Shown: positions 38,909 through 48,586, counted from the stretch's first letter. The stretch: DNA of 64,000 bases from Candidatus Taylorbacteria bacterium RIFCSPHIGHO2_01_FULL_46_22b (GCA_001820875.1 MHRF01000004.1:17434-81433); one strand, 5' to 3'. The notes: generated from the letters alone by a model not told the origin. Made by a program: numbers and translations.

Positions 38909-39520
38909 CTACTTAGCCGTGCTCAAAAAAGAATAATCTAGATATTCTTTTTTGAGTCCCTCTCTCCCACTTGCGGTTAGAGAAGAGCCGAGGGCGTCTA
39001 AATAAAACCTCATACCTTCCATAATAAACCTAAACTTCTCAATATGTCTTTTCAAAAACTCAGCAGAAGAGATAGCCTTTCGTAACTCTGAATGACGATT
39101 CCCTTCTTCCGTGTAAATCGTAGAGATTGAATGTCCGTGTAGTAGCTGATTACGTATTGATGAGAAATCTTTGAGCTTTTCAATAATTTGATGATACTGG
39201 CTAGCTATTTCTAGCTTCCCAGAGAAATCAAAATTTGATGTGTAAACAAACATCGTAACCTTGTCACGGAAAGAGACGTTATCTAAGTTTTTCATTATCT
39301 TGAACTCATCGATTTCTTTTTTTATGGTCGGAATAACTATATGTCTAAACAAGGCATTGATCCCAATCTCCAGAACAAGATGGAGGGCGATAAGGAAATC
39401 TATTATTTCCTCCTCTGCTAGGGTCTTCTTTTGTAAGAGTCGATGGCACCTCTCTCGGTTAGAGTGTAAAAGGTAGACATGTTCCGTTCTTGCTTTCACT
39501 GAGACATTTATTTGGATCAT
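38909..39520 (-). CDS. Hypothetical protein with an HEPN-like Rx4H motif
   Basis: RNQLLHGH in the C-terminal third. Alpha-helical. Overlaps the upstream Ymh-family gene by 4 nt (ATGA). Confidence 0.4.
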   Translation of the reverse strand: MIQINVSVKARTEHVYLLHSNRERCHRLLQKKTLAEEEIIDFLIALHLVLEIGINALFRHIVIPTIKKEIDEFKIMKNLDNVSFRDKVTMFVYTSNFDFSGKLEIASQYHQIIEKLKDFSSIRNQLLHGHSISTIYTEEGNRHSELRKAISSAEFLKRHIEKFRFIMEGMRFYLDALGSSLTASGREGLKKEYLDYSFLSTAK

Positions 39521-40233
39521 TGTATTGAGTCAACAATTCTAAGGAGAGTATTCGCAATATGAATGATGTCAGCCGCCTCACGTGGATCGGTAAGATTCAC
39601 ATAGCGGTGGCTTGAGGGATTCTTGTAAGTACCTATCGCTCCAGAGAACAACTCCATACGAGCTTGCTGTTCAGCAGGATGTGCAGTTTTATCGACAAGC
39701 GGAGCAGAAGGAGGACCAAACGCTTTCCTCATGAGGTCAACACCAATCTCTTTTTCTGAGAGACCTGCCTTTGTTCGTACGCGTACCTCTACTTCCTTGA
39801 ACGCCTGAAAGATGGCAGTATCATAGTCACCTCTTATGAATGATTGTTTTACTTTCCTCACAAGGATAGAATCAAGACCATCTGATGGAAGTAAATATCC
39901 TTGCCGGTAGGTATCAAAATCTTGAGAGTCAAGTACTTTCTTGCCTCTGTGTGTTATAAACATCCAATCATTATTTCCTGGCTGTGGTGCAATAAAAAGT
40001 TCTTTTTCTAGCCACATCCATGCAACGGAAAAGCGTTCAAGAACCGATTGTCCTTGTTTATAGGATCCAGCCCAATCAACAAACTCTCTATCTGTACCTA
40101 ACAAGAAATTATGACGATTGAGTTTACCTTGTTCTGCCCTACCAAGATGTTTTAGGACAAGAGGAGCAAGTTCCTCCGGCTCCATCTCAAGGACAGCCTC
40201 TGGAAGTGGATATATTTCTGAATAAAGTGACAT
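39517..40233 (-). CDS. TIGR02391 / Hypoth_Ymh-family protein
   Basis: The C-terminal ~120 aa (LMRKAFGPPSAPLVDK...ELFSGAIGTYKNPSSHRYVNLTDPREAADIIHIANTLLRIVD) match the Hypoth_Ymh consensus. Confidence 0.6.
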   Translation of the reverse strand: MSLYSEIYPLPEAVLEMEPEELAPLVLKHLGRAEQGKLNRHNFLLGTDREFVDWAGSYKQGQSVLERFSVAWMWLEKELFIAPQPGNNDWMFITHRGKKVLDSQDFDTYRQGYLLPSDGLDSILVRKVKQSFIRGDYDTAIFQAFKEVEVRVRTKAGLSEKEIGVDLMRKAFGPPSAPLVDKTAHPAEQQARMELFSGAIGTYKNPSSHRYVNLTDPREAADIIHIANTLLRIVDSIQ

Positions 40234-40293
40234 TTTGGAATAATACCATTCTCTAGTATGTGGTGCCTTTCAAAATCCTAAATATCTTTGAAA

Positions 40294-40719
40294 TTACAAC
40301 CATCTAGCTACGCCCCCATGATGGGAACAGGTGCCGCGTCTGCTTTGGCTGAAGCTGTAGGTCCCATCTCGGCATTGCGCTGTCGCACCTGCTGGGATGG
40401 ATGGAGCGTAGGCTGGAGAATGTACGGTATTGCCTGCGCTATTGGTGTAGTAATTGTCGTTTGAAAGAGGTGTTTGTTCTGAAGGTTCTGGCTGATTCGG
40501 AGCGATCTGTTTTACCGGAACAGAAGGACTCGGTGCTACCTGACTTACTTGTGCTGTATTGAAGGAGTTTATTGCCGCCGTAGAGTCTTGAACTGACCTA
40601 GTTTGGCTACTTGAATCGCCAAAGGCTCCAAGGAGCACTATAAGCCCGAAAAACGCTATAGGTATGATATAACGCTTCTTTTGGTACCATTTCCTCGTTT
40701 TTCGATCCTGTGTAGCCAT
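40294..40719 (-). CDS. DUF3761 domain protein, membrane-anchored
   Basis: C-terminal CRDGTYSFSQSRRGTCSHHGGV is the DUF3761 signature. Confidence 0.7.
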   Translation of the reverse strand: MATQDRKTRKWYQKKRYIIPIAFFGLIVLLGAFGDSSSQTRSVQDSTAAINSFNTAQVSQVAPSPSVPVKQIAPNQPEPSEQTPLSNDNYYTNSAGNTVHSPAYAPSIPAGATAQCRDGTYSFSQSRRGTCSHHGGVARWL

Positions 40720-40795
40720 AATGCTTTTGCAAGCACCATACTAGGCATGGGGAGAGAAAAAGCAAGAACTCTTAGAGTGGAGATAAATCCTCCAA

Positions 40796-41878
40796 TTATT
40801 CAGAAAAGAAAGAATCGCTTATTTCATCGGCAATAAAACCTGAAAATCCACCCCCGCGCATTTCAATCCGAGTTGGAAACATTTCCAGAGAATCTTTGAT
40901 ATGTTTTGCAATTCGCTCTGCACTTTCAATAGTACTAGAAACTACTAGCAACTTATAGCCCATTGAAGGAAGAAGCTTTTTTAGATTTTGAAGTAAGAGC
41001 TGATCACCGGCTTTCCAGCCAATGACAAGAATCCGGTCTACTTGGGGTAAATCGATAAGAAGCCGCTGAATATGTTCGGGGTGACAGATATAACGATCTT
41101 TTCCAAGAAGAGGTATTGCAATGGCTGGAAGTTCAATGAAATCATTTCTTTCACTATGTTCTTTTAGCTCATCTTGGTGGTAAAGCCCAACATCTTTTTT
41201 CCGGTGTTCTTCTAAGAAATCAGGATTTTTTATACACCATGAAAAACCGTCAATTTCCTCCGGTGAAGTACCGTACTCTATATTGGATTTTCGGTGTATA
41301 TACGCCCAATCATGCGACCCGTGGAGTTTTATAATCTTTAGACCACCCTCTAAATAATCCCGCATCCTCTTGAATGTTCTATGTGGAATGCTCTGCTCAA
41401 ACAAACTATCGTAGTTGAATGTCGCAACAAGCGCTTTTCCGCTCGTATGGGTGTTTATGCGGTTTACAAGAGATTTGTAGTTATTGACCTGCCGCGCCTT
41501 CTGGAAATCTTCCTCGGAAAGCGGAGATAAACCCCTATTAGAAATTTCCTTGAAAAGTGCCTGTAAATAAAACTCCAGCGCAACGAAATGCACTCTCATC
41601 TGCTCAGAATGTTTTGTGCGCTCTTTTATTTCAGTAAGTACCTCTTCAAAGCCACGTTTCTTTTCTTTTACTTGAAGAAGTATGTCTGACAGGAGATCGC
41701 CAGCTCCGGGGTACTTTCCAAGTAACGTATGCAAGAGAAAGTGGTCCTCCACTAAGTCTTTCGTTAGAGGTCCAACTTTTGCTATCGGTGAATAATCGTA
41801 TGAAGCTCCAGCACCGAGGATAATAAGTGGGTAAGCCATTACATTGGCTATATTACTCCTTAGAGAATCTCCCGCCAA
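40796..41878 (-). CDS. SIR2_2-family protein (standalone SIR2-like, defense-associated family)
   Basis: LIILGAGASYD (the GAGxS motif), TFNYDSLFE (cf. TTNYDxLLE) and KLHGSHDW, as in ThsA/DSR-type SIR2 domains. Confidence 0.75.
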   Translation of the reverse strand: MAGDSLRSNIANVMAYPLIILGAGASYDYSPIAKVGPLTKDLVEDHFLLHTLLGKYPGAGDLLSDILLQVKEKKRGFEEVLTEIKERTKHSEQMRVHFVALEFYLQALFKEISNRGLSPLSEEDFQKARQVNNYKSLVNRINTHTSGKALVATFNYDSLFEQSIPHRTFKRMRDYLEGGLKIIKLHGSHDWAYIHRKSNIEYGTSPEEIDGFSWCIKNPDFLEEHRKKDVGLYHQDELKEHSERNDFIELPAIAIPLLGKDRYICHPEHIQRLLIDLPQVDRILVIGWKAGDQLLLQNLKKLLPSMGYKLLVVSSTIESAERIAKHIKDSLEMFPTRIEMRGGGFSGFIADEISDSFFSE

Positions 41879-42851: not shown

Positions 42852-43275
42852 GTCCCCAATTATCTTCGACCGGAACGTCTTTTTTTACCTTTGATACCCA
42901 CTCAGCATGAAGAAAACTCTCAGCAAAATAAAATAAAGTCATCAAGATCGTTATACGAGCCATTGAAGCTGTAAAACCGACTGCGCTTACTATAAAGGTC
43001 GCTTCGCTACGTCCAACGAGTAAAAAGATACTGACTAGAAAGAATATCCCACCTAGCAGAGCACACAACAGACCTTTCTTATAATATTTACCCTTCACCC
43101 AAGGAATATGAGAGAGGAGAATATCTAAAATAACCAGCACGCTTATACCGAGCGGGAGGGCTAGGATAATACCCACGGTATCATTGGGGGCGATTAGTAT
43201 TCCAAGTAACCAGATTGGAGCACTCCATGTCCAAACTTTTTTCCAAAGGATTTTCTTATTTTTCATGGGAGGCAT
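42835..43275 (-). CDS. Hypothetical polytopic membrane protein
   Basis: 146 aa with 4 TM helices. Confidence 0.45.
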   Translation of the reverse strand: MPPMKNKKILWKKVWTWSAPIWLLGILIAPNDTVGIILALPLGISVLVILDILLSHIPWVKGKYYKKGLLCALLGGIFFLVSIFLLVGRSEATFIVSAVGFTASMARITILMTLFYFAESFLHAEWVSKVKKDVPVEDNWGHGARR

Positions 43276-43374
43276 ATTACTGATAAACCCCCGCGATCAG
43301 GCAACAAAAAGCCCACCACGGGTAGTGGCTTGCGCCACTCATACCGGTTTCCCGATATGGCCAGATACAGCGAC

Positions 43375-43460
43375 CCCATGATGGGTTCTTTATGCTGTAT
43401 CTGGTCTTTTCGCCATGCCCGGACAAGGGTTTAGGCTACTTTCAATATTCAATTGTTACT
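43375..43460 (+). repeat. ~85-bp direct repeat copy A (about 80% identical to 46575-46650), flanking the DGR cassette
   Basis: Shared core ATGATGG..TGCTRTATCTGGTCTTTTCRCCATGCC..GGTTTAGG. Confidence 0.5.
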
Positions 43461-43765
43461 TCATAATAGCGCAAAAAGGGCTTCTGGTCACTTTCTTTAC
43501 GTTTAGAAATTGGGTGTTGCGAAGAGGTATTACCAACAATCGGAAAATCATTGACATATCGTCATAAATATGATAAGCTTAGTAAAAGTATAGGTCATTG
43601 TAATCCAAGGTTCAAAACTATGAGACGAGTCTCTTGGTGATCTCTGTGAGGTCTTCAAAATACTCGTCTCATACCAGAGCGAGTCCCAACCACCTGTTGG
43701 TGTCAACAAAACCCGCCTAAAGTCGAAAGACAAAGGCATCAGTACAGTACAGAAAGAGAAAAGTT

Positions 43766-44605
43766 ATGAATACAAACTCTGATCGCGGTATATTCGCTCT
43801 GAGTGTTTCAGAGCTCGGTCCGACATTGGGAGCGCTTCAAAAGCATGGTGTTACCGTGGCACATCTCGATATGCTCCGTGCCAACAACGGCGACAACGAC
43901 TACGCTAAACGGTTTGCCCAAGCTCTCACCCTCAAGGCCTTCGAAACTTCAACCGACACCCGCATCGCGCGGCTCGTCCTCGGCAAGTCATTTGTTGACG
44001 TCGCCGACTGGGTGACCCTCTACGGAGCTCGGTTCAGCAGGAAGGAAGTGCACCAGGCGCTCAAGTTCCCGTGGCACGAAGATATTCTGATGGGTCCTTG
44101 CCCCTTCAATCCGGGCAAGCTCGTCAAGGACACACACACCGCGTTTCTGGGGCTAGAGAAACTCAACGGCTCGCCGCTCAATGTCATGAAGTGGAACGAA
44201 CTGCACCCGAAGAAGGACGACCTCCAGCCTCGGATGTACTGCGACCCGAACCCCTGGTACGCAACCGAGAAACACACGACAGAAGTCCTGCTCCAACCCC
44301 GCTGGTACCTCATGCTCACCGAAATCGTCCCGGACTCATGGAACAAACTCCCTGAAGAGCAGGAACAAATGCTCCCCAAGGAGTACGAAATCCCGACGAC
44401 CGTCGCCGAAACCACGAAGGACCTCCTGGTTTTCCGAAAGACCGACATACGTCCTAACCCGACACGTTGGGCACGTTGCGCCGAGAAGACCTCGGTCGGC
44501 CTCCTCTCGTGCGTTGGCGTCTTCGACGAGTGTGGCCTCCTCGTCGACTTCTGGCTCGGCTACCGCCACGACTTTGTGGGCCTTGGTGCCTCCCGGAAGT
44601 TCTGA
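43766..44605 (+). CDS. DGR target (variable) protein with a C-terminal variable repeat
   Basis: The last ~35 codons are the VR, matched by the downstream TR except at TR adenines. No signal peptide. Confidence 0.8.
   Translation: MNTNSDRGIFALSVSELGPTLGALQKHGVTVAHLDMLRANNGDNDYAKRFAQALTLKAFETSTDTRIARLVLGKSFVDVADWVTLYGARFSRKEVHQALKFPWHEDILMGPCPFNPGKLVKDTHTAFLGLEKLNGSPLNVMKWNELHPKKDDLQPRMYCDPNPWYATEKHTTEVLLQPRWYLMLTEIVPDSWNKLPEEQEQMLPKEYEIPTTVAETTKDLLVFRKTDIRPNPTRWARCAEKTSVGLLSCVGVFDECGLLVDFWLGYRHDFVGLGASRKF
44490..44596 (+). repeat. DGR variable repeat (VR)
   Basis: 107-bp alignment to the TR with about 19 mismatches. Every mismatch is at a TR adenine, mostly in AAC codons. The 3' IMH-like GC-rich end is identical. 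Confidence 0.85.
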
Positions 44606-44645
44606 ACCTCGAACACTTGAGGGCTTGCCCCTCTTGATTCCCTTG

Positions 44646-44684
44646 AGCCCTCGCGCAAATTTTTTGCGAGGGCTCTTTTCTTTT
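44646..44684 (+). terminator. GC-rich hairpin plus T-run downstream of the VR
   Basis: AGCCCTCGC...GCGAGGGCT then CTTTTCTTTT. Could be a terminator or a DGR homing-enhancing hairpin. Confidence 0.55.
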
Positions 44685-44964
44685 ACATGCTACAATAATC
44701 GCATCCTGCTAATGCAGATTGGATTACGGTTCAATCTCGCGGGGTGTCTCACCTTTGAGATTCGCCAGAATGCCCTTGGTTTACGGATCAGGACAGCGTG
44801 CGAGGAAGGATGAAGATTTTACTTCTTGTTCGTTTCTAGCGGAGGTGTTTCCGAAAGGAAACTGCTCCCGAATAAAATTCAGGACTGAGAGGATATAGGT
44901 GGGCGAAAGCTTGCGGTAAACCTCAAGGTTCGGTGCCTTGGACGGAAGCGGACAACATTTCGCG

Positions 44965-45071
44965 ACTCGGACGGCAACCTCTCGTGCGTTGGCAACTTCG
45001 ACGAGAATGGCCTCAACGTCAACAACTGGAACGGCAACCGCAACGACAATGTGGGCCTTGGTGCCTCCCGG
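44965..45071 (+). repeat. DGR template repeat (TR), noncoding
   Basis: Adenine-rich (AAC)n-containing copy of the VR. The in-frame ORF across it is a translation artefact. Confidence 0.85.
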
Positions 45072-45122
45072 CAGTCATCTCTTCGCCGAGAAGAAGCCTG
45101 CCATGTGGCGGGCTTCTTTGTA

Positions 45123-45473
45123 TCATCGCTCTTTAGATGATCTTATCCATCCTCCGAGCATCCTGCCAATCTCATCAAGGCTCACCTCAATGGAGACGTA
45201 CCGCTTCCCGTCAATCGCTTTGACGTCCTTTGCAAGTCGGACGAACACACGCAAGAAGTTGAGTTTGAGACTCGTCTTCTCAAGAATAGGAACTTTCTCT
45301 GCTTTACCTATTTGGCTTGCCAATAGGATTCCCTCCAACACCTCAAGCAACAGCTCCTCGCATTTCTGCCAAACGGTGTAACGGTCCTGTTTGGGGATGC
45401 TAGAGCGATAGGTGTGGAAGGATTTGTATAGATCGTACGTTTTCTTGAAAATTGGGATGTCTAAATCATGCAT
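45123..45473 (-). CDS. avd: Accessory variability determinant (Avd, four-helix-bundle protein)
   Basis: 116 aa. The C-terminus EIGRMLGGWIRSSKER resembles BPP-1 bAvd VGRILGSWIARVNRK. Basic helical bundle. Confidence 0.75.
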   Translation of the reverse strand: MHDLDIPIFKKTYDLYKSFHTYRSSIPKQDRYTVWQKCEELLLEVLEGILLASQIGKAEKVPILEKTSLKLNFLRVFVRLAKDVKAIDGKRYVSIEVSLDEIGRMLGGWIRSSKER

Positions 45474-45478
45474 GGTAT

Positions 45479-46528
45479 ATGAAAATTTATAGGGACGTAT
45501 ATGCGCGAATGATCTCTCCAGAAAACCTCTTTCGGGCGTGGAAGGTATTCAAGGAGAATAAGCGCAACAAAGTGGATGTAATGGAATTTGAAATAAATCT
45601 TGAGAAAGAAATTTTCAAGTTGCACCGAGAACTGAAAGACAGGACGTACCACCACGGTCCTTATAGCGGGTTTTGGATTCGCGATCCGAAGTTGCGACGC
45701 ATACATAAAGCGACGGTACGCGACAGAGTTTTGCATCATGCGGTGTTTAGAATTCTCAACCCGATTTTTGAGCCAACATTCATTGCCAATTCGTTTTCGT
45801 GCCGCATCGGTAAAGGGACACATAAAGGGATGAGGAAGGTTGCCGAGATGATTCGCGCGAAAAGTGGTAACTACACACGGGAATGTTTTGCGTTGAAATG
45901 CGATATACGAAAATTCTTTGACTCTATCGATCACGATATTCTGCTCCGGATTCTTGAGAAGAAAGTTGTGGACAAGAGGATGCTGTGGCTCCTGCGCGAA
46001 ATCATCGAGAGCTTCACCGCGAGCAGACCGAACCTCTTTGACCGACATGGTGTACCCATCGGCAATCTGACGTCTCAAATATTTGCCAATATTTACATGA
46101 ACGAATTTGATCAGTTTATAAAACATGCCTTGCATGTAAAAGACTACGCAAGATACACGGACGACTTCGTGATTATTTCGAATGACAGAAAATATCTTGA
46201 GTACCTGCTTGAACCCATACGTGAATATCTTTCGCATACGTTGCACATTGAACTTCACCCGCACAAGATTCTGTTGCGAGAGTGTAAGCGTGGTATTGAT
46301 TTTTTGGGTTACGTTATATTGCCACATCATATTGTAGTGAGGAAGAAAACAAAGCAGAGAGTTCTCAGAAAACTACGGGAACGCGTCGCTCAATATCGAA
46401 ACGGAAATATCAAAGAAGAAACCCTCTGGGGATCGCTTAGCTCGTACCTAGGCGTTCTCTCTCATGCGGATGCCTACAAGTTGACAGAGGAGACACTAAA
46501 CAATTTCTGGTTTTGGCTGAAAGAGTGA
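45479..46528 (+). CDS. DGR reverse transcriptase
   Basis: RT motifs 1-7: RRIHKA, DIRKFFDSIDHD, VPIGNLTSQIFANIYMNEFD (the DGR-specific IGxxxSQ), YARYTDDFVII, KRGIDFLGY. No maturase or endonuclease domains. Confidence 0.9.
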   Translation: MKIYRDVYARMISPENLFRAWKVFKENKRNKVDVMEFEINLEKEIFKLHRELKDRTYHHGPYSGFWIRDPKLRRIHKATVRDRVLHHAVFRILNPIFEPTFIANSFSCRIGKGTHKGMRKVAEMIRAKSGNYTRECFALKCDIRKFFDSIDHDILLRILEKKVVDKRMLWLLREIIESFTASRPNLFDRHGVPIGNLTSQIFANIYMNEFDQFIKHALHVKDYARYTDDFVIISNDRKYLEYLLEPIREYLSHTLHIELHPHKILLRECKRGIDFLGYVILPHHIVVRKKTKQRVLRKLRERVAQYRNGNIKEETLWGSLSSYLGVLSHADAYKLTEETLNNFWFWLKE

Positions 46529-46574
46529 TATTCGAAATACAAAAACCCACCGAGGGAAGAGATTAGCATTTATC

Positions 46575-46650
46575 ACACCCTATGATGGATTTGTGCTATA
46601 TCTGGTCTTTTCACCATGCCAGCGACTTGCATCGCGGTTTAGGTCGTAGC
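46575..46650 (+). repeat. ~85-bp direct repeat copy B
   Basis: See copy A. Confidence 0.5.
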
Positions 46651-46689
46651 ATTATTCATTTGTAAACTCATTTTACCACAAAAGAGCTG

Positions 46690-47430
46690 ATGAAAAAAGA
46701 GCTGAAAACGAGTAGGGCGGAAGAAGTCTATCTTGATGCAATTGAACGGAAATCTTTCAAAACAGACTTAGATGCTTTCATGAAAAGATTCCGGGTCCCG
46801 AATCCCAAACTCCACACAGAGGAGAAAATAGAAGAATGGCTTTTGGGCATGTTTCAAGTGGCGTTGGAATACCGCTTCCCCTCTCCTTTTCTCAAACCAA
46901 GAAAAGACAATAAATATCCAAAAGCATCTGAATATATCCCAGCAAGAATTGCTTTTCTAAAGAAATATAGGTTCTCTGTGGACATGAACGGCAATGCTAT
47001 GGACGAAATCATAGGAGGAAAGGTCCCGGCATACACAAACGTTGATCTTGAAACCCCGATTGAACATGAGGAGAGAATAAACGGAAGACGTTCTTTGAAG
47101 ATTGTTGTTTATGCGGGAGCCACTCGGGAAGAGGTTCTCAACTACATCAAGCGATGGTGGAAATATCTGAGGAAACATCTGGAAGGAAGCCAGAAGGTAA
47201 AGAGGGTCCGGGTAAAAACCAAACGCAAAGAAGATGCATTGGCAGATTTCTACAGTCGGAAACCTGTTCGTGAACTTATGGTTATCTTGGGGGAAAAAGT
47301 AAAACCCGAATATAAAGCAACTCTGGTTGAGCGAATCCTGAACGAGATACATGGTTACCCCTCCAGAGATTATCTATCCCTCAATAGAGCTGTATACCGA
47401 AAAAGAGCACGAACTCTATCTGACAAATAA
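46690..47430 (+). CDS. Hypothetical protein (element-borne)
   Basis: 246 aa, basic. No recognised motif. Confidence 0.45.
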   Translation: MKKELKTSRAEEVYLDAIERKSFKTDLDAFMKRFRVPNPKLHTEEKIEEWLLGMFQVALEYRFPSPFLKPRKDNKYPKASEYIPARIAFLKKYRFSVDMNGNAMDEIIGGKVPAYTNVDLETPIEHEERINGRRSLKIVVYAGATREEVLNYIKRWWKYLRKHLEGSQKVKRVRVKTKRKEDALADFYSRKPVRELMVILGEKVKPEYKATLVERILNEIHGYPSRDYLSLNRAVYRKRARTLSDK

Positions 47431-47677
47431 GTAGGCCTATTTTATTGTCTTATACAACGTGGCTCTGAACCAATATCCTGGAAACACCAGGGTATTTTTA
47501 TGTCCAGAGCTGATACAAAATGCGGGGAGAAGTTTACAAGCGATCTAGCGTCGTTCTTTGACTTTCTTGCGCGTTTTGATTTTGAGGACAAACAAAAGGA
47601 GCAATCTGCACTGGGCTCCGGTCCTTTAGTTTCAGCTCCTAAGGGACCGGGGTCGAGTTCTGATTCTCAAACATATA

Positions 47678-48199
47678 ATGGAGCTGAAACTAAAACTTAG
47701 ATTCAAGAGGAATAACGGCTGGTTCTTTATTCACAACAGAGAGGCTGAAAGAATTGGCAATGCTTTTGGCGCTATTGGCTTAGCGGTGTATATTTTTCTT
47801 TGCAGGAGATCTGATCTCAAGACACAAAAGTGCCATCCAAGCCAAAAGAGAACTGGCAAAGATATACAAAAAAGTGCTAAGTGCGTCCAAAAATACATAA
47901 GACTTTTCCAAGAAGCTCGAATAATAGGTATTGAGAGAGGAAAACACGGAGGGAGGTGGCTAAATAACACCTATACCCTAATAGATATGAGCGAGTGGCT
48001 AATACCAGAGGAAATAAGTTCCTCTGGTAAGAGCAAAGACTCTCGATCTCCACCAGAGGAAAATAATGCCGCTAACCAAGGGCAATACATTCCCCGTAAG
48101 GAGACTCTAATAAATAAGGAAAACAATGTATGCAAAAAAGAAAATCAAGAGTTGATAGAAGGAAGAAGAAAACTAGCGCAAAAGTGGAGAACGTCCTAA
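47678..48199 (+). CDS. Hypothetical HTH / replication-organiser-like protein (weak)
   Basis: Possibly a winged-helix N-terminal region (FFIHNREAERIGNAFGAIGLAVY). Low confidence. Confidence 0.35.
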   Translation: MELKLKLRFKRNNGWFFIHNREAERIGNAFGAIGLAVYIFLCRRSDLKTQKCHPSQKRTGKDIQKSAKCVQKYIRLFQEARIIGIERGKHGGRWLNNTYTLIDMSEWLIPEEISSSGKSKDSRSPPEENNAANQGQYIPRKETLINKENNVCKKENQELIEGRRKLAQKWRTS

Positions 48200-48552
48200 A
48201 GAATCCTAGATGGGAACTCTTCTGCCGATACTATTCTGGAAATCCTGAAAGTATCGGGAACGCAACAAAGGCATATATGCTGGCATATAACCTTCCCCAA
48301 AATACCTATGGAACTGCCAACAAGAACGCATATCGGTTGATGGTAAATGAGGGTATTTTGAGGCGCATAGAAGAGCTCCAAGAGGTGTACATGAAAAAGG
48401 TTGATTTTGAGCTAGCGTTTGTCATTGGACAGAGAAAAAATCTTGCCGCAAAAGTTGCCGCTCTCAAGGAGTTCTACAGGAAATCTCCTAGGGTCAATGG
48501 GGGTATAAAAAAATCGCAGGAAGTCACTTTTCGATGGCTTGAGGATAAATAA
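48130..48552 (+). CDS. Terminase small subunit-like protein (Terminase_2/P27-like HTH)
   Basis: NPRWELFCRYYSG...NATKAYMLAY...RRIEELQ resembles the phage TerS N-terminal DNA-binding domain. The start codon is uncertain. Confidence 0.45.
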   Translation: MQKRKSRVDRRKKKTSAKVENVLKNPRWELFCRYYSGNPESIGNATKAYMLAYNLPQNTYGTANKNAYRLMVNEGILRRIEELQEVYMKKVDFELAFVIGQRKNLAAKVAALKEFYRKSPRVNGGIKKSQEVTFRWLEDK

Positions 48553-48586
48553 AAGCAATCTAAGATAAAAAGAGTAAAATAAATCT

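Follow-up and report, generated by a model that had tools for sequence, protein, structure and literature searches.

Among the diversity-generating retroelements (DGRs) in the Candidate Phyla Radiation (CPR), one gene order is reported to dominate. The main text of Wu et al. 2018 (NAR; PMC5758913) assigns 90% of CPR DGRs to architecture B3, written TR-(avd)-RT, where parentheses mark the reverse strand, TR is the template repeat, avd encodes the accessory variability determinant, and RT is the reverse transcriptase. We describe here an element of this kind at positions 43766 to 46528 of a 64-kb stretch of DNA (64,000 nt; hereafter the window) from a metagenome-assembled genome (MAG) of Candidatus Taylorbacteria, an ultra-small CPR bacterium from groundwater. 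The CPR and DPANN B3 elements of that main text resemble it in having an upstream target gene with a C-terminal variable repeat (VR), a reversed avd between TR and RT, a groundwater CPR host, and a TR rich in AAC codons. The layout is identical; the main text makes no mention of a leader upstream of TR or of a CTTGA array, two features of our locus that are described below. By the established DGR mechanism, TR would be transcribed, RT and Avd would copy the TR RNA into cDNA while misincorporating opposite adenines, and the cDNA would replace VR, here recoding about 13 codons on the ligand-binding face of a cytoplasmic target protein. The DGRs of CPR and DPANN organisms are reportedly also the subject of Paul et al. 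2017 (Nat Microbiol).

The RNA of the Bordetella phage BPP-1 DGR (mtd-VR, avd, TR, spacer, brt; structure 8ub7) is described in detail (bioRxiv 10.1101/2023.10.23.563531). Its spacer lies 3' of TR. Spacer nucleotides 53 to 56 pair with the 3' end of TR, and A56 primes cDNA synthesis from its 2'-OH; nucleotides 58 to 70 pair with a segment upstream of TR to form the "cPRT stop." Next come a stem-loop, A-minor adenosines, a single-stranded "thumb ring," and a long stem-loop that binds RT. Avd binds to an 11-bp hairpin with a tetraloop, directly behind TR.

The retroelement, its proteins, and its natural alleles

We are highly confident that the locus is a complete, recently active DGR in a Candidatus Taylorbacteria genome, with the CPR-typical B3 architecture target-VR / TR / (avd) / RT. 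The initial annotation of this region had called a complete DGR (target-VR, TR, Avd, and RT) between 43766 and 46528. Its open reading frames (ORFs), repeats, and hairpin were all confirmed, and the call, which is fully supported, is strengthened by a second natural VR allele.

VR (44490-44600) and TR (44965-45075), both on the plus strand, align without gaps. In the 107-nt core of the alignment (44490-44596 versus 44965-45071), there are 19 mismatches, and TR has an adenine at all 19, just as the initial annotation had claimed of its 107-bp repeat; re-alignment revealed no mismatch off the TR adenines. With 25 adenines among the 107 nt of the TR core, the probability that 19 random mismatches would all fall on adenines is approximately 3e-16. 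A repeat finder recovered the same pair as 110 nt at 83% identity (44491-44600 and 44966-45075). All 26 adenines of TR occupy codon position 1 or 2 of the target frame, which is the classical DGR design and maximizes recoding. When adenine positions are ignored, TR equals VR at 84 of 85 bases, and neither strand of the window holds another match or a second VR for this TR. The mutable part of VR spans 44490-44574, with the last mutated site at 44574. Twenty-two identical, GC-rich nucleotides follow (44575-44596, equal to 45050-45071), and beyond them the copies diverge, reading AAGTTCTGA in VR and CAGTCATCT in TR. This GC-rich 3' end of VR, about 25 nt long (44575-44600), together with the divergence after it, is a putative initiation-of-mutagenic-homing (IMH/IMH*)-type boundary of the kind expected in a DGR. 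Eleven related loci show the same pattern, with 12 to 20 mismatches at TR adenines per locus; their mismatches are mostly or entirely at TR adenines, and those at other bases number 0 to 5 each.

Assemblies of several samples contain this locus, on at least 10 contigs, and the samples that carry it include ERZ27254752/754/767/845, ERZ4903055, JGI 3300002502, SRR2090153, and SRR3989338. In six of the copies that we fetched, VR equals the window allele. Two contigs, L037 (ERZ27254845) and L038 (SRR3989338), carry a second VR allele. Compared with the window over 7,384 nt, L037, which comes from a different sample, has 16 differences. VR holds 15 of them, between 44496 and 44574, every one at a TR-adenine site; the sixteenth is a single-nucleotide polymorphism (SNP) at 44962. 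TR is identical between the two natural alleles, and a protein of the family (P0068) differs from the window protein only within VR. These differences are direct evidence of at least one homing event since the separation of the two populations; because the alleles differ at 15 TR-adenine sites of VR while TR is unchanged, the element has been active recently. The target, avd, and RT ORFs are all intact. Two further contigs, L004 and L005, end at window positions 45111 and 44999, that is, they break or turn chimeric at TR, with L005 diverging from 44967 onward. These breaks are probably an assembly-graph artifact of the TR/VR repeat, which is a caution for short-read surveys of DGRs.

The target gene (43766-44605, plus strand) encodes a protein of 279 amino acids (aa) that is an exact match to OHA18582.1 of a Candidatus Taylorbacteria MAG. 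It has no sequence match in Pfam, NCBIfam, or PDB, and in lacking Pfam domains it is like the "UVR"/ungrouped CPR targets in the main text of Wu et al. (PMC5758913). Its family comprises 66 proteins, all of them, where named, from CPR/Parcubacteria lineages. An AlphaFold2 model built from 55 homologs was confident (pLDDT 91.4, pTM 0.87) and predicts a helical N-terminal domain followed by a domain with the C-type lectin (CLec)/formylglycine-generating enzyme (FGE) fold, the fold that the initial annotation had suggested looking for; VR lies at the C terminus of this modeled domain, as in DGR targets. In the family alignment, the VR columns are hypervariable, and the scaffold residues W263, G272, G274, A275, and R277 are invariant. 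Two DGR variable proteins of the CLec/FGE fold, Treponema denticola TvpA and Thermus TaqVP, are approximately 11 to 12% identical to the target in sequence; unlike them, the target has a helical N-terminal domain of about 100 aa and no lipoprotein or secretion signal. No signal peptide, transmembrane segment, or N-terminal hydrophobic segment was found in the target, which is probably cytoplasmic.

The target genes are also distinct in base composition. Their GC content is 53 to 60%, with 65 to 81% GC at third codon positions (third-position C about 0.45, A 0.07 to 0.13). The avd and RT genes of the same cassettes have 32 to 46% GC, and the host loci have 39 to 45%, except L035 (53%). We observed this bias in all eight cassettes examined (the window, L008, L011, L012, L016, L023, L033, and L035) and in most target homologs that stand alone (L024, L025, and L027), and it is kept across proteins that are only 45 to 65% identical.

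The avd gene (45123-45473, minus strand) encodes 116 aa ending in IGRMLGGWIRSSKER. Its product matches the Pfam family bAvd (PF22296, 6e-17) and the NCBIfam equivalog NF033474 (DivGenRetAVD), where its 83.7 bits exceed the curated cutoff of 80, so that the Avd homolog proposed downstream of TR is confirmed. The RT ORF (45452/45479-46528, plus strand; 349 aa from the ATG at 45479) matches RVT_1 (3.8e-23) and bears GVPIGNLTSQIFANIY and YTDD. Its best solved relative is the Bordetella phage RT, bRT (8ub7, E 8e-44), which aligns over its full length (residues 4-335) and has IGSLTSQ (GIPIGSLTSQLFANVY) opposite the IGNLTSQ (GVPIGNLTSQIFANIY) that the initial annotation had recognized as DGR specific; both fit the (I/L)GxxxSQ motif of the DGR clade. 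Scores against group II and retron RT models are below the cutoffs of those models. Because RT homologs align from residue 1 of the ATG at 45479, the RT and avd start codons lie 5 nt apart on opposite strands. The locus thus resembles BPP-1 in its full-length RT homology, IGxLTSQ motif, Avd, CLec-fold target, adenine-specific TR/VR differences, GC-rich IMH-like 3' boundary, and an 11-bp tetraloop hairpin right after TR. Here, however, avd is antisense and downstream of TR, no spacer separates TR from RT, and the system is cellular, with a cytoplasmic target, rather than a tail-fiber system.

The order of TR (plus strand), avd (minus strand), and RT (plus strand) is that of B3. We found target(+)-TR-avd(-)-RT(+) also in 10 genome loci, from Yanofsky-, Kuenen-, and Paceibacterota and other CPR MAGs, and the B3 layout in nearly all loci with enough flank among at least 119 metagenome loci; the starts of avd and RT are 1 to 16 nt apart in these relatives. 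Because the layout matches B3, the norm for CPR DGRs, and is conserved in relatives, it is standard for CPR and not unusual. The initial annotation had taken three features as atypical, and this part of it did not hold as its core call did. The reversed avd between TR and RT is simply architecture B3, described for 90% of CPR DGRs in the source cited above. The target indeed has no signal peptide, and cytoplasmic DGR targets are well documented (PMC10907252). The hairpin that it placed at 44646-44684 exists as well, and it is a conserved terminator followed by a T-run. Because the element belongs to the known B3 class of CPR DGRs, the finding as first framed is ordinary: the DGR is a further member of a catalogued class. 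Three parts merit further work: the structured leader, the permuted topology proposed for the RNA, and the CTTGA array.

One IMG/VR contig also has the B3 layout. This contig, L158 (IMGVR_UViG_3300035698_027858, 33.8 kb), is the only one in IMG/VR with a close RT relative (52% identity), and its leader is divergent (nhmmer E 4e-19). At least one DGR of this type is therefore on a predicted viral/proviral contig; we found no VR within the 5.2 kb of L158 examined. Decayed or rearranged cassettes were seen elsewhere. L017 (6001-7540) keeps the leader and a TR with 20 adenine-only mismatches and has lost avd and most of RT; in L009 (1298-1662) a leader is followed by a TR-like copy whose mismatches are not adenine specific; L025 (6935-7076) has only half a leader; and in L007 avd directly follows the target, with no TR. 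Many target homologs (L013, L018, L024-L028, L036, and others) have no TR, avd, or RT within 6 kb, and several of these orphans keep the CTTGA array and terminator past the stop codon. One possibility is that these homologs are remote targets served by a DGR at another place in the genome; another is that they are former targets.

A structured leader upstream of the template repeat

The approximately 280 nt between the target terminator and TR are noncoding, and their nucleotide conservation is far above that of the flanking proteins: this region is conserved at the nucleotide level in loci whose target proteins are only 45 to 65% identical. We aligned 84 nonredundant sequences (<93% identity; alignment A5). 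An extended -10 box, TGnTAnAAT, is conserved just past the terminator T-run in A5 and in alignment A2; in the window it reads TGcTACAAT (44688-44696, plus strand). We infer from this box that the TR RNA has its own promoter, with transcription starting near 44702-44704, which coincides with the first base pair of the leader (44702-44964, plus strand). The initial annotation had missed this leader, together with the CTTGA element, and had left the terminator nature of the hairpin unstated.

Several lines of evidence indicate that the leader is a folded RNA. RNAalifold applied to 11 sequences gave 68 pairs, 43 of them with compensatory changes. The A5 consensus for the whole RNA, leader through 3' hairpin, contains 111 pairs that are 91.8% paired, and sliding the partners by 1 to 3 columns lowered this value to 39 to 49%. 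Double changes occur in 81 of the 111 pairs. Compensatory cells number 1217 compared to 366 in shuffles, and none of 500 shuffles reached the observed value. RNAalifold also placed helices inside TR (A5 columns 645-749); these showed almost only one-sided changes and were not counted as structure.

From its 5' end, the predicted leader consists of helix P1 (44703-44745), helix P2 (44761-44804), a long-range strand (44812-44825) that pairs across TR with 45070-45084, a stop-like helix (44826-44837 with 44944-44955), a stem-loop (44839-44869), an invariant A-rich single strand CGAAUAAAAU (44870-44879), and a long interrupted stem-loop (44880-44935), all on the plus strand. The stop-like helix is contiguous with the long-range strand, and its partner lies 10 to 20 nt upstream of TR. 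It has 12 bp, is 97% paired in A5, and shows double changes in eight pairs.

To collect leaders, we searched with a DNA pattern taken from two conserved single-stranded blocks, which requires ACTTCTTG. The pattern occurs in at least 119 metagenome contigs and was not found in IMG/VR. In the window, an nhmmer profile of the leader finds exactly one copy (44703-44955, E 3e-62). The leader travels with avd and RT rather than with one target family, in that no target homolog was detectable in about 18 loci whose upstream flanks are long, and it is absent from L181, a viral DGR whose avd is on the same strand as RT. Against Rfam 15, the leader had no match at E <= 1 (cmscan of 43000-47200, which returned only a LOOT RNA at 43324-43437). 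We found no described upstream or permuted DGR RNA in the searchable literature, which did not include the supplements of Wu et al. or Paul et al. 2017. The roughly 260-nt leader thus appears, from comparative analysis, to be a conserved structured RNA that seems to be new to the literature.

The long-range strand would hold the 3' end of TR and its flank (45070-45084, plus strand) in a template:primer-like duplex. The core of this duplex, ACUUC:GGnAGU, is invariant in the main sample, and its purine-/pyrimidine-rich extension co-varies. Cognate duplexes average -9.96 kcal/mol compared to -8.09 for noncognate ones, and none of 5000 permutations of the partners reached the cognate mean. We also considered the identity of ACTTCTTG and GGAACTTC as a direct repeat rather than as pairing, and we dropped this idea: because GAAnTTC is near-palindromic, the two are complementary. 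L158, a contig recovered by RT homology that lies outside the search pattern, provides the best evidence for the long-range duplex. Its core, ACUAC:GUAGU instead of ACUUC:GAAGU, shows a compensatory U-to-A / A-to-U change; compensation is likewise seen in its extension (UUUAGA:UCUAAA) and in its 11-bp stop-like helix. The 14-bp primer-like duplex of L158 has an energy of -16.9 kcal/mol and the stop-like helix -13.8 kcal/mol.

The positions of mutation fit the same arrangement. The mutated adenine sites (TR 44965-45049) are all inside the predicted template (44956-45069), that is, between the two long-range helices, and A45073, which is within the duplex, is unmutated in both natural alleles. 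Sixteen nucleotides after TR, a hairpin with an 11-bp stem and a tetraloop (45092-45117, plus strand) is followed by CUUUGU. The post-TR segment of 54 nt (45072-45125), which includes a second short stem, folds at -23.7 kcal/mol (z = -4.3), and the hairpin covaries across the 84 sequences (helices 22 and 23). The avd stop codon (45123-45125, other strand) is just past it. By analogy with Bordetella, we propose that this hairpin is the Avd-binding stem-loop and may also form the 3' end, or terminator, of the TR RNA.

Proposed RNA topology and its alternatives

Comparison of these RNA features suggests that the TR RNA would be a separate transcript of about 420 nt, from approximately 44703 to 45120, with its own promoter, a structured leader of about 260 nt, TR, and a terminal hairpin. 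The leader strand 44812-44837 would bridge the template: its 5' half would pair with the TR 3' end and flank (45070-45084) and its 3' half with 44944-44955, so that C44825, the 3' end of the primer-like strand, would point into the template at C45069. This would be the topology of the Bordetella primer:template and "cPRT stop" duplexes, placed 5' of the template as in retrons. Going by the description in the Bordetella paper, the order of elements in spacer nucleotides 53 to 139 is matched by the leader: primer strand, stop strand, stem-loop, A-rich strand, and long interrupted stem-loop. In both systems one RNA strand pairs with the 3' end of TR and then with a segment upstream of it. Unlike in BPP-1, the strand pairing with both TR flanks and the stem-loops following it would here lie 5' of TR, in a separate promoter-driven leader with an extra 5' domain (P1-P2). 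Three prime of TR, we found no structured spacer of about 140 nt of the Bordetella type; only the 26-nt hairpin precedes the antisense avd ORF. The TR RNA would thus work like the Bordetella-type RNA without being built like it.

The arrangement also recalls the msr-msd RNA of retrons, where a structured RNA likewise lies 5' of the template and a 5' strand is duplexed with sequence 3' of the template. The 3' end of that strand points into the template in both cases, at the place where retrons prime from a 2'-OH. In contrast to retrons, the RT here belongs to another clade, and the element has Avd, adenine mutagenesis, and homing into a target gene, with no multicopy single-stranded DNA (msDNA) or effector. 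That the CPR leader is a circular permutation of the Bordetella DGR RNA, topologically resembling retron msr-msd, is suggested by the order and pairing of its strands, and we give this proposal a roughly even chance of being correct. The antisense position of avd right after TR would be explained by the model, because the functional RNA block would sit 5' of TR.

A more far-reaching reading joins these parts. CPR B3 DGRs may use a permuted, retron-like RNA in which a promoter-driven leader of about 260 nt would supply the primer strand, the stop duplex, the A-rich strand, and the RT-binding stem-loop, and which would end at an Avd-binding hairpin/terminator. Such RNAs would form an uncatalogued family and would account for the reversed avd, and the CTTG(A) array may be the matching mark on the target. 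We advance this joint reading tentatively, as a possibility somewhat short of an even bet.

Several points weigh against our overall interpretation of the locus or against its supporting evidence. The promoter, the RNA ends, and the priming site are predictions made from sequence, and the Bordetella comparison uses the published description of that RNA rather than a structural alignment. The invariance of the 5-bp core ACUUC is partly a product of construction, as the search pattern required ACTTCTTG, and a C.C mismatch lies within the duplex core in 40 of 84 sequences. The shuffle and permutation controls do not take account of the relatedness of the sequences. With regard to activity, only two VR alleles occur among about 10 assemblies, and one of them is identical in at least six; because so few alleles are seen, diversification appears to be episodic rather than continuous.

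The alternative that survives best, although we consider it unlikely, is that the leader is only a stabilizing or regulatory RNA similar to a 5' untranslated region (UTR), and that the spacer which functions in priming and RT binding is located 3' of TR, on a transcript reading through into antisense avd and the RT mRNA; the DGR call would stand in either case. Read-through is plausible given the weak T-run after the post-TR hairpin (CUUUGU), and there is no room for an RT promoter, with the avd and RT starts 5 nt apart here and 1 to 16 nt apart in relatives. In many Avd-containing DGRs, CPR elements among them, Handa et al. report that the 100 nt downstream of TR contain putative stop duplexes and putative stem-loops for Avd binding. 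The sequence past the post-TR hairpin is also conserved, but this conservation is explained by the C terminus of Avd (...LGGWI...) that is encoded on the other strand. The leader strands, for their part, pair with the TR 3' end and just upstream of TR, in the right order and polarity and with compensatory changes in both helices, and the mutated segment of TR falls exactly between the two. Approximately 260 nt with 81 covarying pairs, in strict co-occurrence with B3 avd and RT and absent from L181, exceed what a UTR would need.

A second alternative concerns the region downstream of VR. From the target stop codon to the terminator, 40 nt show conservation at the DNA level across 72 unique loci (consensus ACCTTGAAgtCTTGAGGgCTTGTCCCTCTTGAAtcCTTGAGCC). 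In the window, this VR-downstream element (44607-44648, plus strand) contains five CT(T/C)G(A) repeats, at 44608, 44616, 44624, 44633, and 44642, 8 to 9 nt apart; four to five CTTG(A) units with a spacing of about 9 nt are present in 56 of the 72 loci. Inside the array is a small hairpin (GAGGG at 44619-44623 and CCCTC at 44629-44633) whose pairing is kept through compensatory double changes. Because nothing similar follows TR, the CTTGA array is a candidate mark of the recipient site. Next comes the GC-rich hairpin (44645-44684, plus strand), with an 11-bp stem (44645-44655 and 44665-44675; -21.2 kcal/mol, z = -5.5) followed by TTTTCTTTT. It is conserved with compensatory changes, and in related loci a T-run always follows it. 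A simple promoter/terminator scan missed both this hairpin and the one after TR because of its loop-size rule, and it gave no usable promoter calls.

The simplest reading of the post-VR hairpin is the intrinsic terminator of the target gene, because a T-run follows it, its stem covaries, and it sits between the target stop codon and the promoter of the TR RNA. The initial annotation had suggested instead that the hairpin (44645-44675) might enhance homing, which as a primary role would make it a DNA cruciform like those of the Bordetella and Legionella DGRs. In those systems a GC-rich inverted repeat downstream of IMH enhances homing, according to the main text of Wu et al. (PMC5758913), which also already considers such repeats as possible terminators. 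The hairpin is GC rich, conserved, and covarying, and TR has no equivalent of the array and hairpin. However, it lies about 45 nt past the end of the TR/VR homology, always has a T-run after it, and stands exactly where the target mRNA must end, ahead of the TR-RNA promoter; for marking the target, better candidates are the CTTGA array and the nearer, small hairpin (44619-44633). We therefore regard a primarily cruciform role as improbable. Termination and homing are compatible roles, and the terminator may help homing as well.

Less probable still is that the RNA 3' end snaps back to prime cDNA synthesis, or that priming starts from a nick at the post-TR hairpin, with the leader duplexes merely holding the template and the internal 2'-OH of the leader strand playing no part. 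The stable hairpin that lies 16 nt past TR, where the RNA probably has its 3' end, would suit such a scheme, and priming from the 3'-OH of a nicked RNA has reportedly been proposed for the Bordetella DGR (PMC5703328). The 3' tail of the hairpin is unpaired, however, and the TR 3' end is already taken up by the leader duplex, with a polarity that points the 3' end of the leader strand into the template. Finally, an ordinary drifted duplication or a dead DGR relic, for which one could cite the VR allele that is identical in at least six assemblies from several samples, can be dismissed given the adenine-only mismatches (19 of 19, with their chance probability of about 3e-16), the intact ORFs, and a second allele with 15 changes, all at TR adenines, against one SNP in the other 7.3 kb.

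Genomic surroundings and implications

A LOOT RNA (RF03000, 86.9 bits; 43324-43437, minus strand) lies just upstream of the target gene, and a degenerate LOOT-like copy (about 46540-46670, minus strand) lies just past RT. The second copy has a similar upstream region, 5' half, and terminator, with an internal deletion of about 30 nt; the 5' halves of the two share 31 nt at 90% (43389-43419 and 46590-46620). The whole DGR cassette lies between these two copies, which are in direct orientation. In addition, LOOT adjoins the DGR in L066, L120, and L139, which are the other loci with this DGR type and a downstream serine recombinase homolog, and the literature that we searched does not mention the motif. 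An imperfect 26-nt inverted repeat with a 3-nt spacer (43619-43673; 81% complementary) sits in the interval from LOOT to the target, about 95 nt before the target start codon, and could be a regulatory or terminator structure.

Downstream of the cassette (46690-50353, plus strand) we found ORF246, with no hits; a gene for a helix-turn-helix/replication-initiator-like protein (47678-48199; phrog_270); one for a terminase-small-subunit-like protein (48130-48552, plus strand; phrog_51, 3e-12); and one for a large serine integrase (48587-50353, plus strand; phrog_95, 2.5e-77). These genes are typical of a small integrative element or satellite, and because the loci that combine this DGR with a serine recombinase (L066, L120, and L139) also carry LOOT, the cassette is probably in or beside such an element. 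A search around the serine integrase for long direct repeats marking element ends gave only short, weak matches; serine integrases need no long repeats. The 3' end of the integrase ORF overlaps a tRNA gene (50215-50540, minus strand) that is split by a group I intron (RF00028, 86.5 bits, 50286-50519) and on which ARAGORN was silent. The ORF tail (...RVGFEPTT...) is the T-arm of the tRNA translated in antisense, so the true integrase probably has an earlier end, beside the tRNA. Upstream neighbors (39517-41878, minus strand) encode a Hypoth_Ymh (PF09509) protein and a weakly SIR2_2-like protein (40796-41878; PF13289, E 0.0011); Hypoth_Ymh and SIR2_2-type domains are common in defense islands. 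At L110 (6681-10368), the DGR adjoins a 23S rRNA gene with two group I introns and a 5S rRNA gene.

We found no published account of how CPR elements with an antisense avd in this position prime cDNA synthesis, and to our knowledge what is understood of the DGR priming mechanism derives entirely from one phage element, in which the functional RNA is downstream of TR. The leader described here is a strongly covarying domain that is common to more than 100 environmental DGRs and absent from Rfam. The model makes testable predictions at specific nucleotides: a bridging strand at 44812-44837, a junction near 44825/44826, and RNA termini close to 44703 and 45120. The locus is also a clean natural example of DGR activity, in which two alleles are separated by 15 differences at TR adenines and by essentially nothing else.

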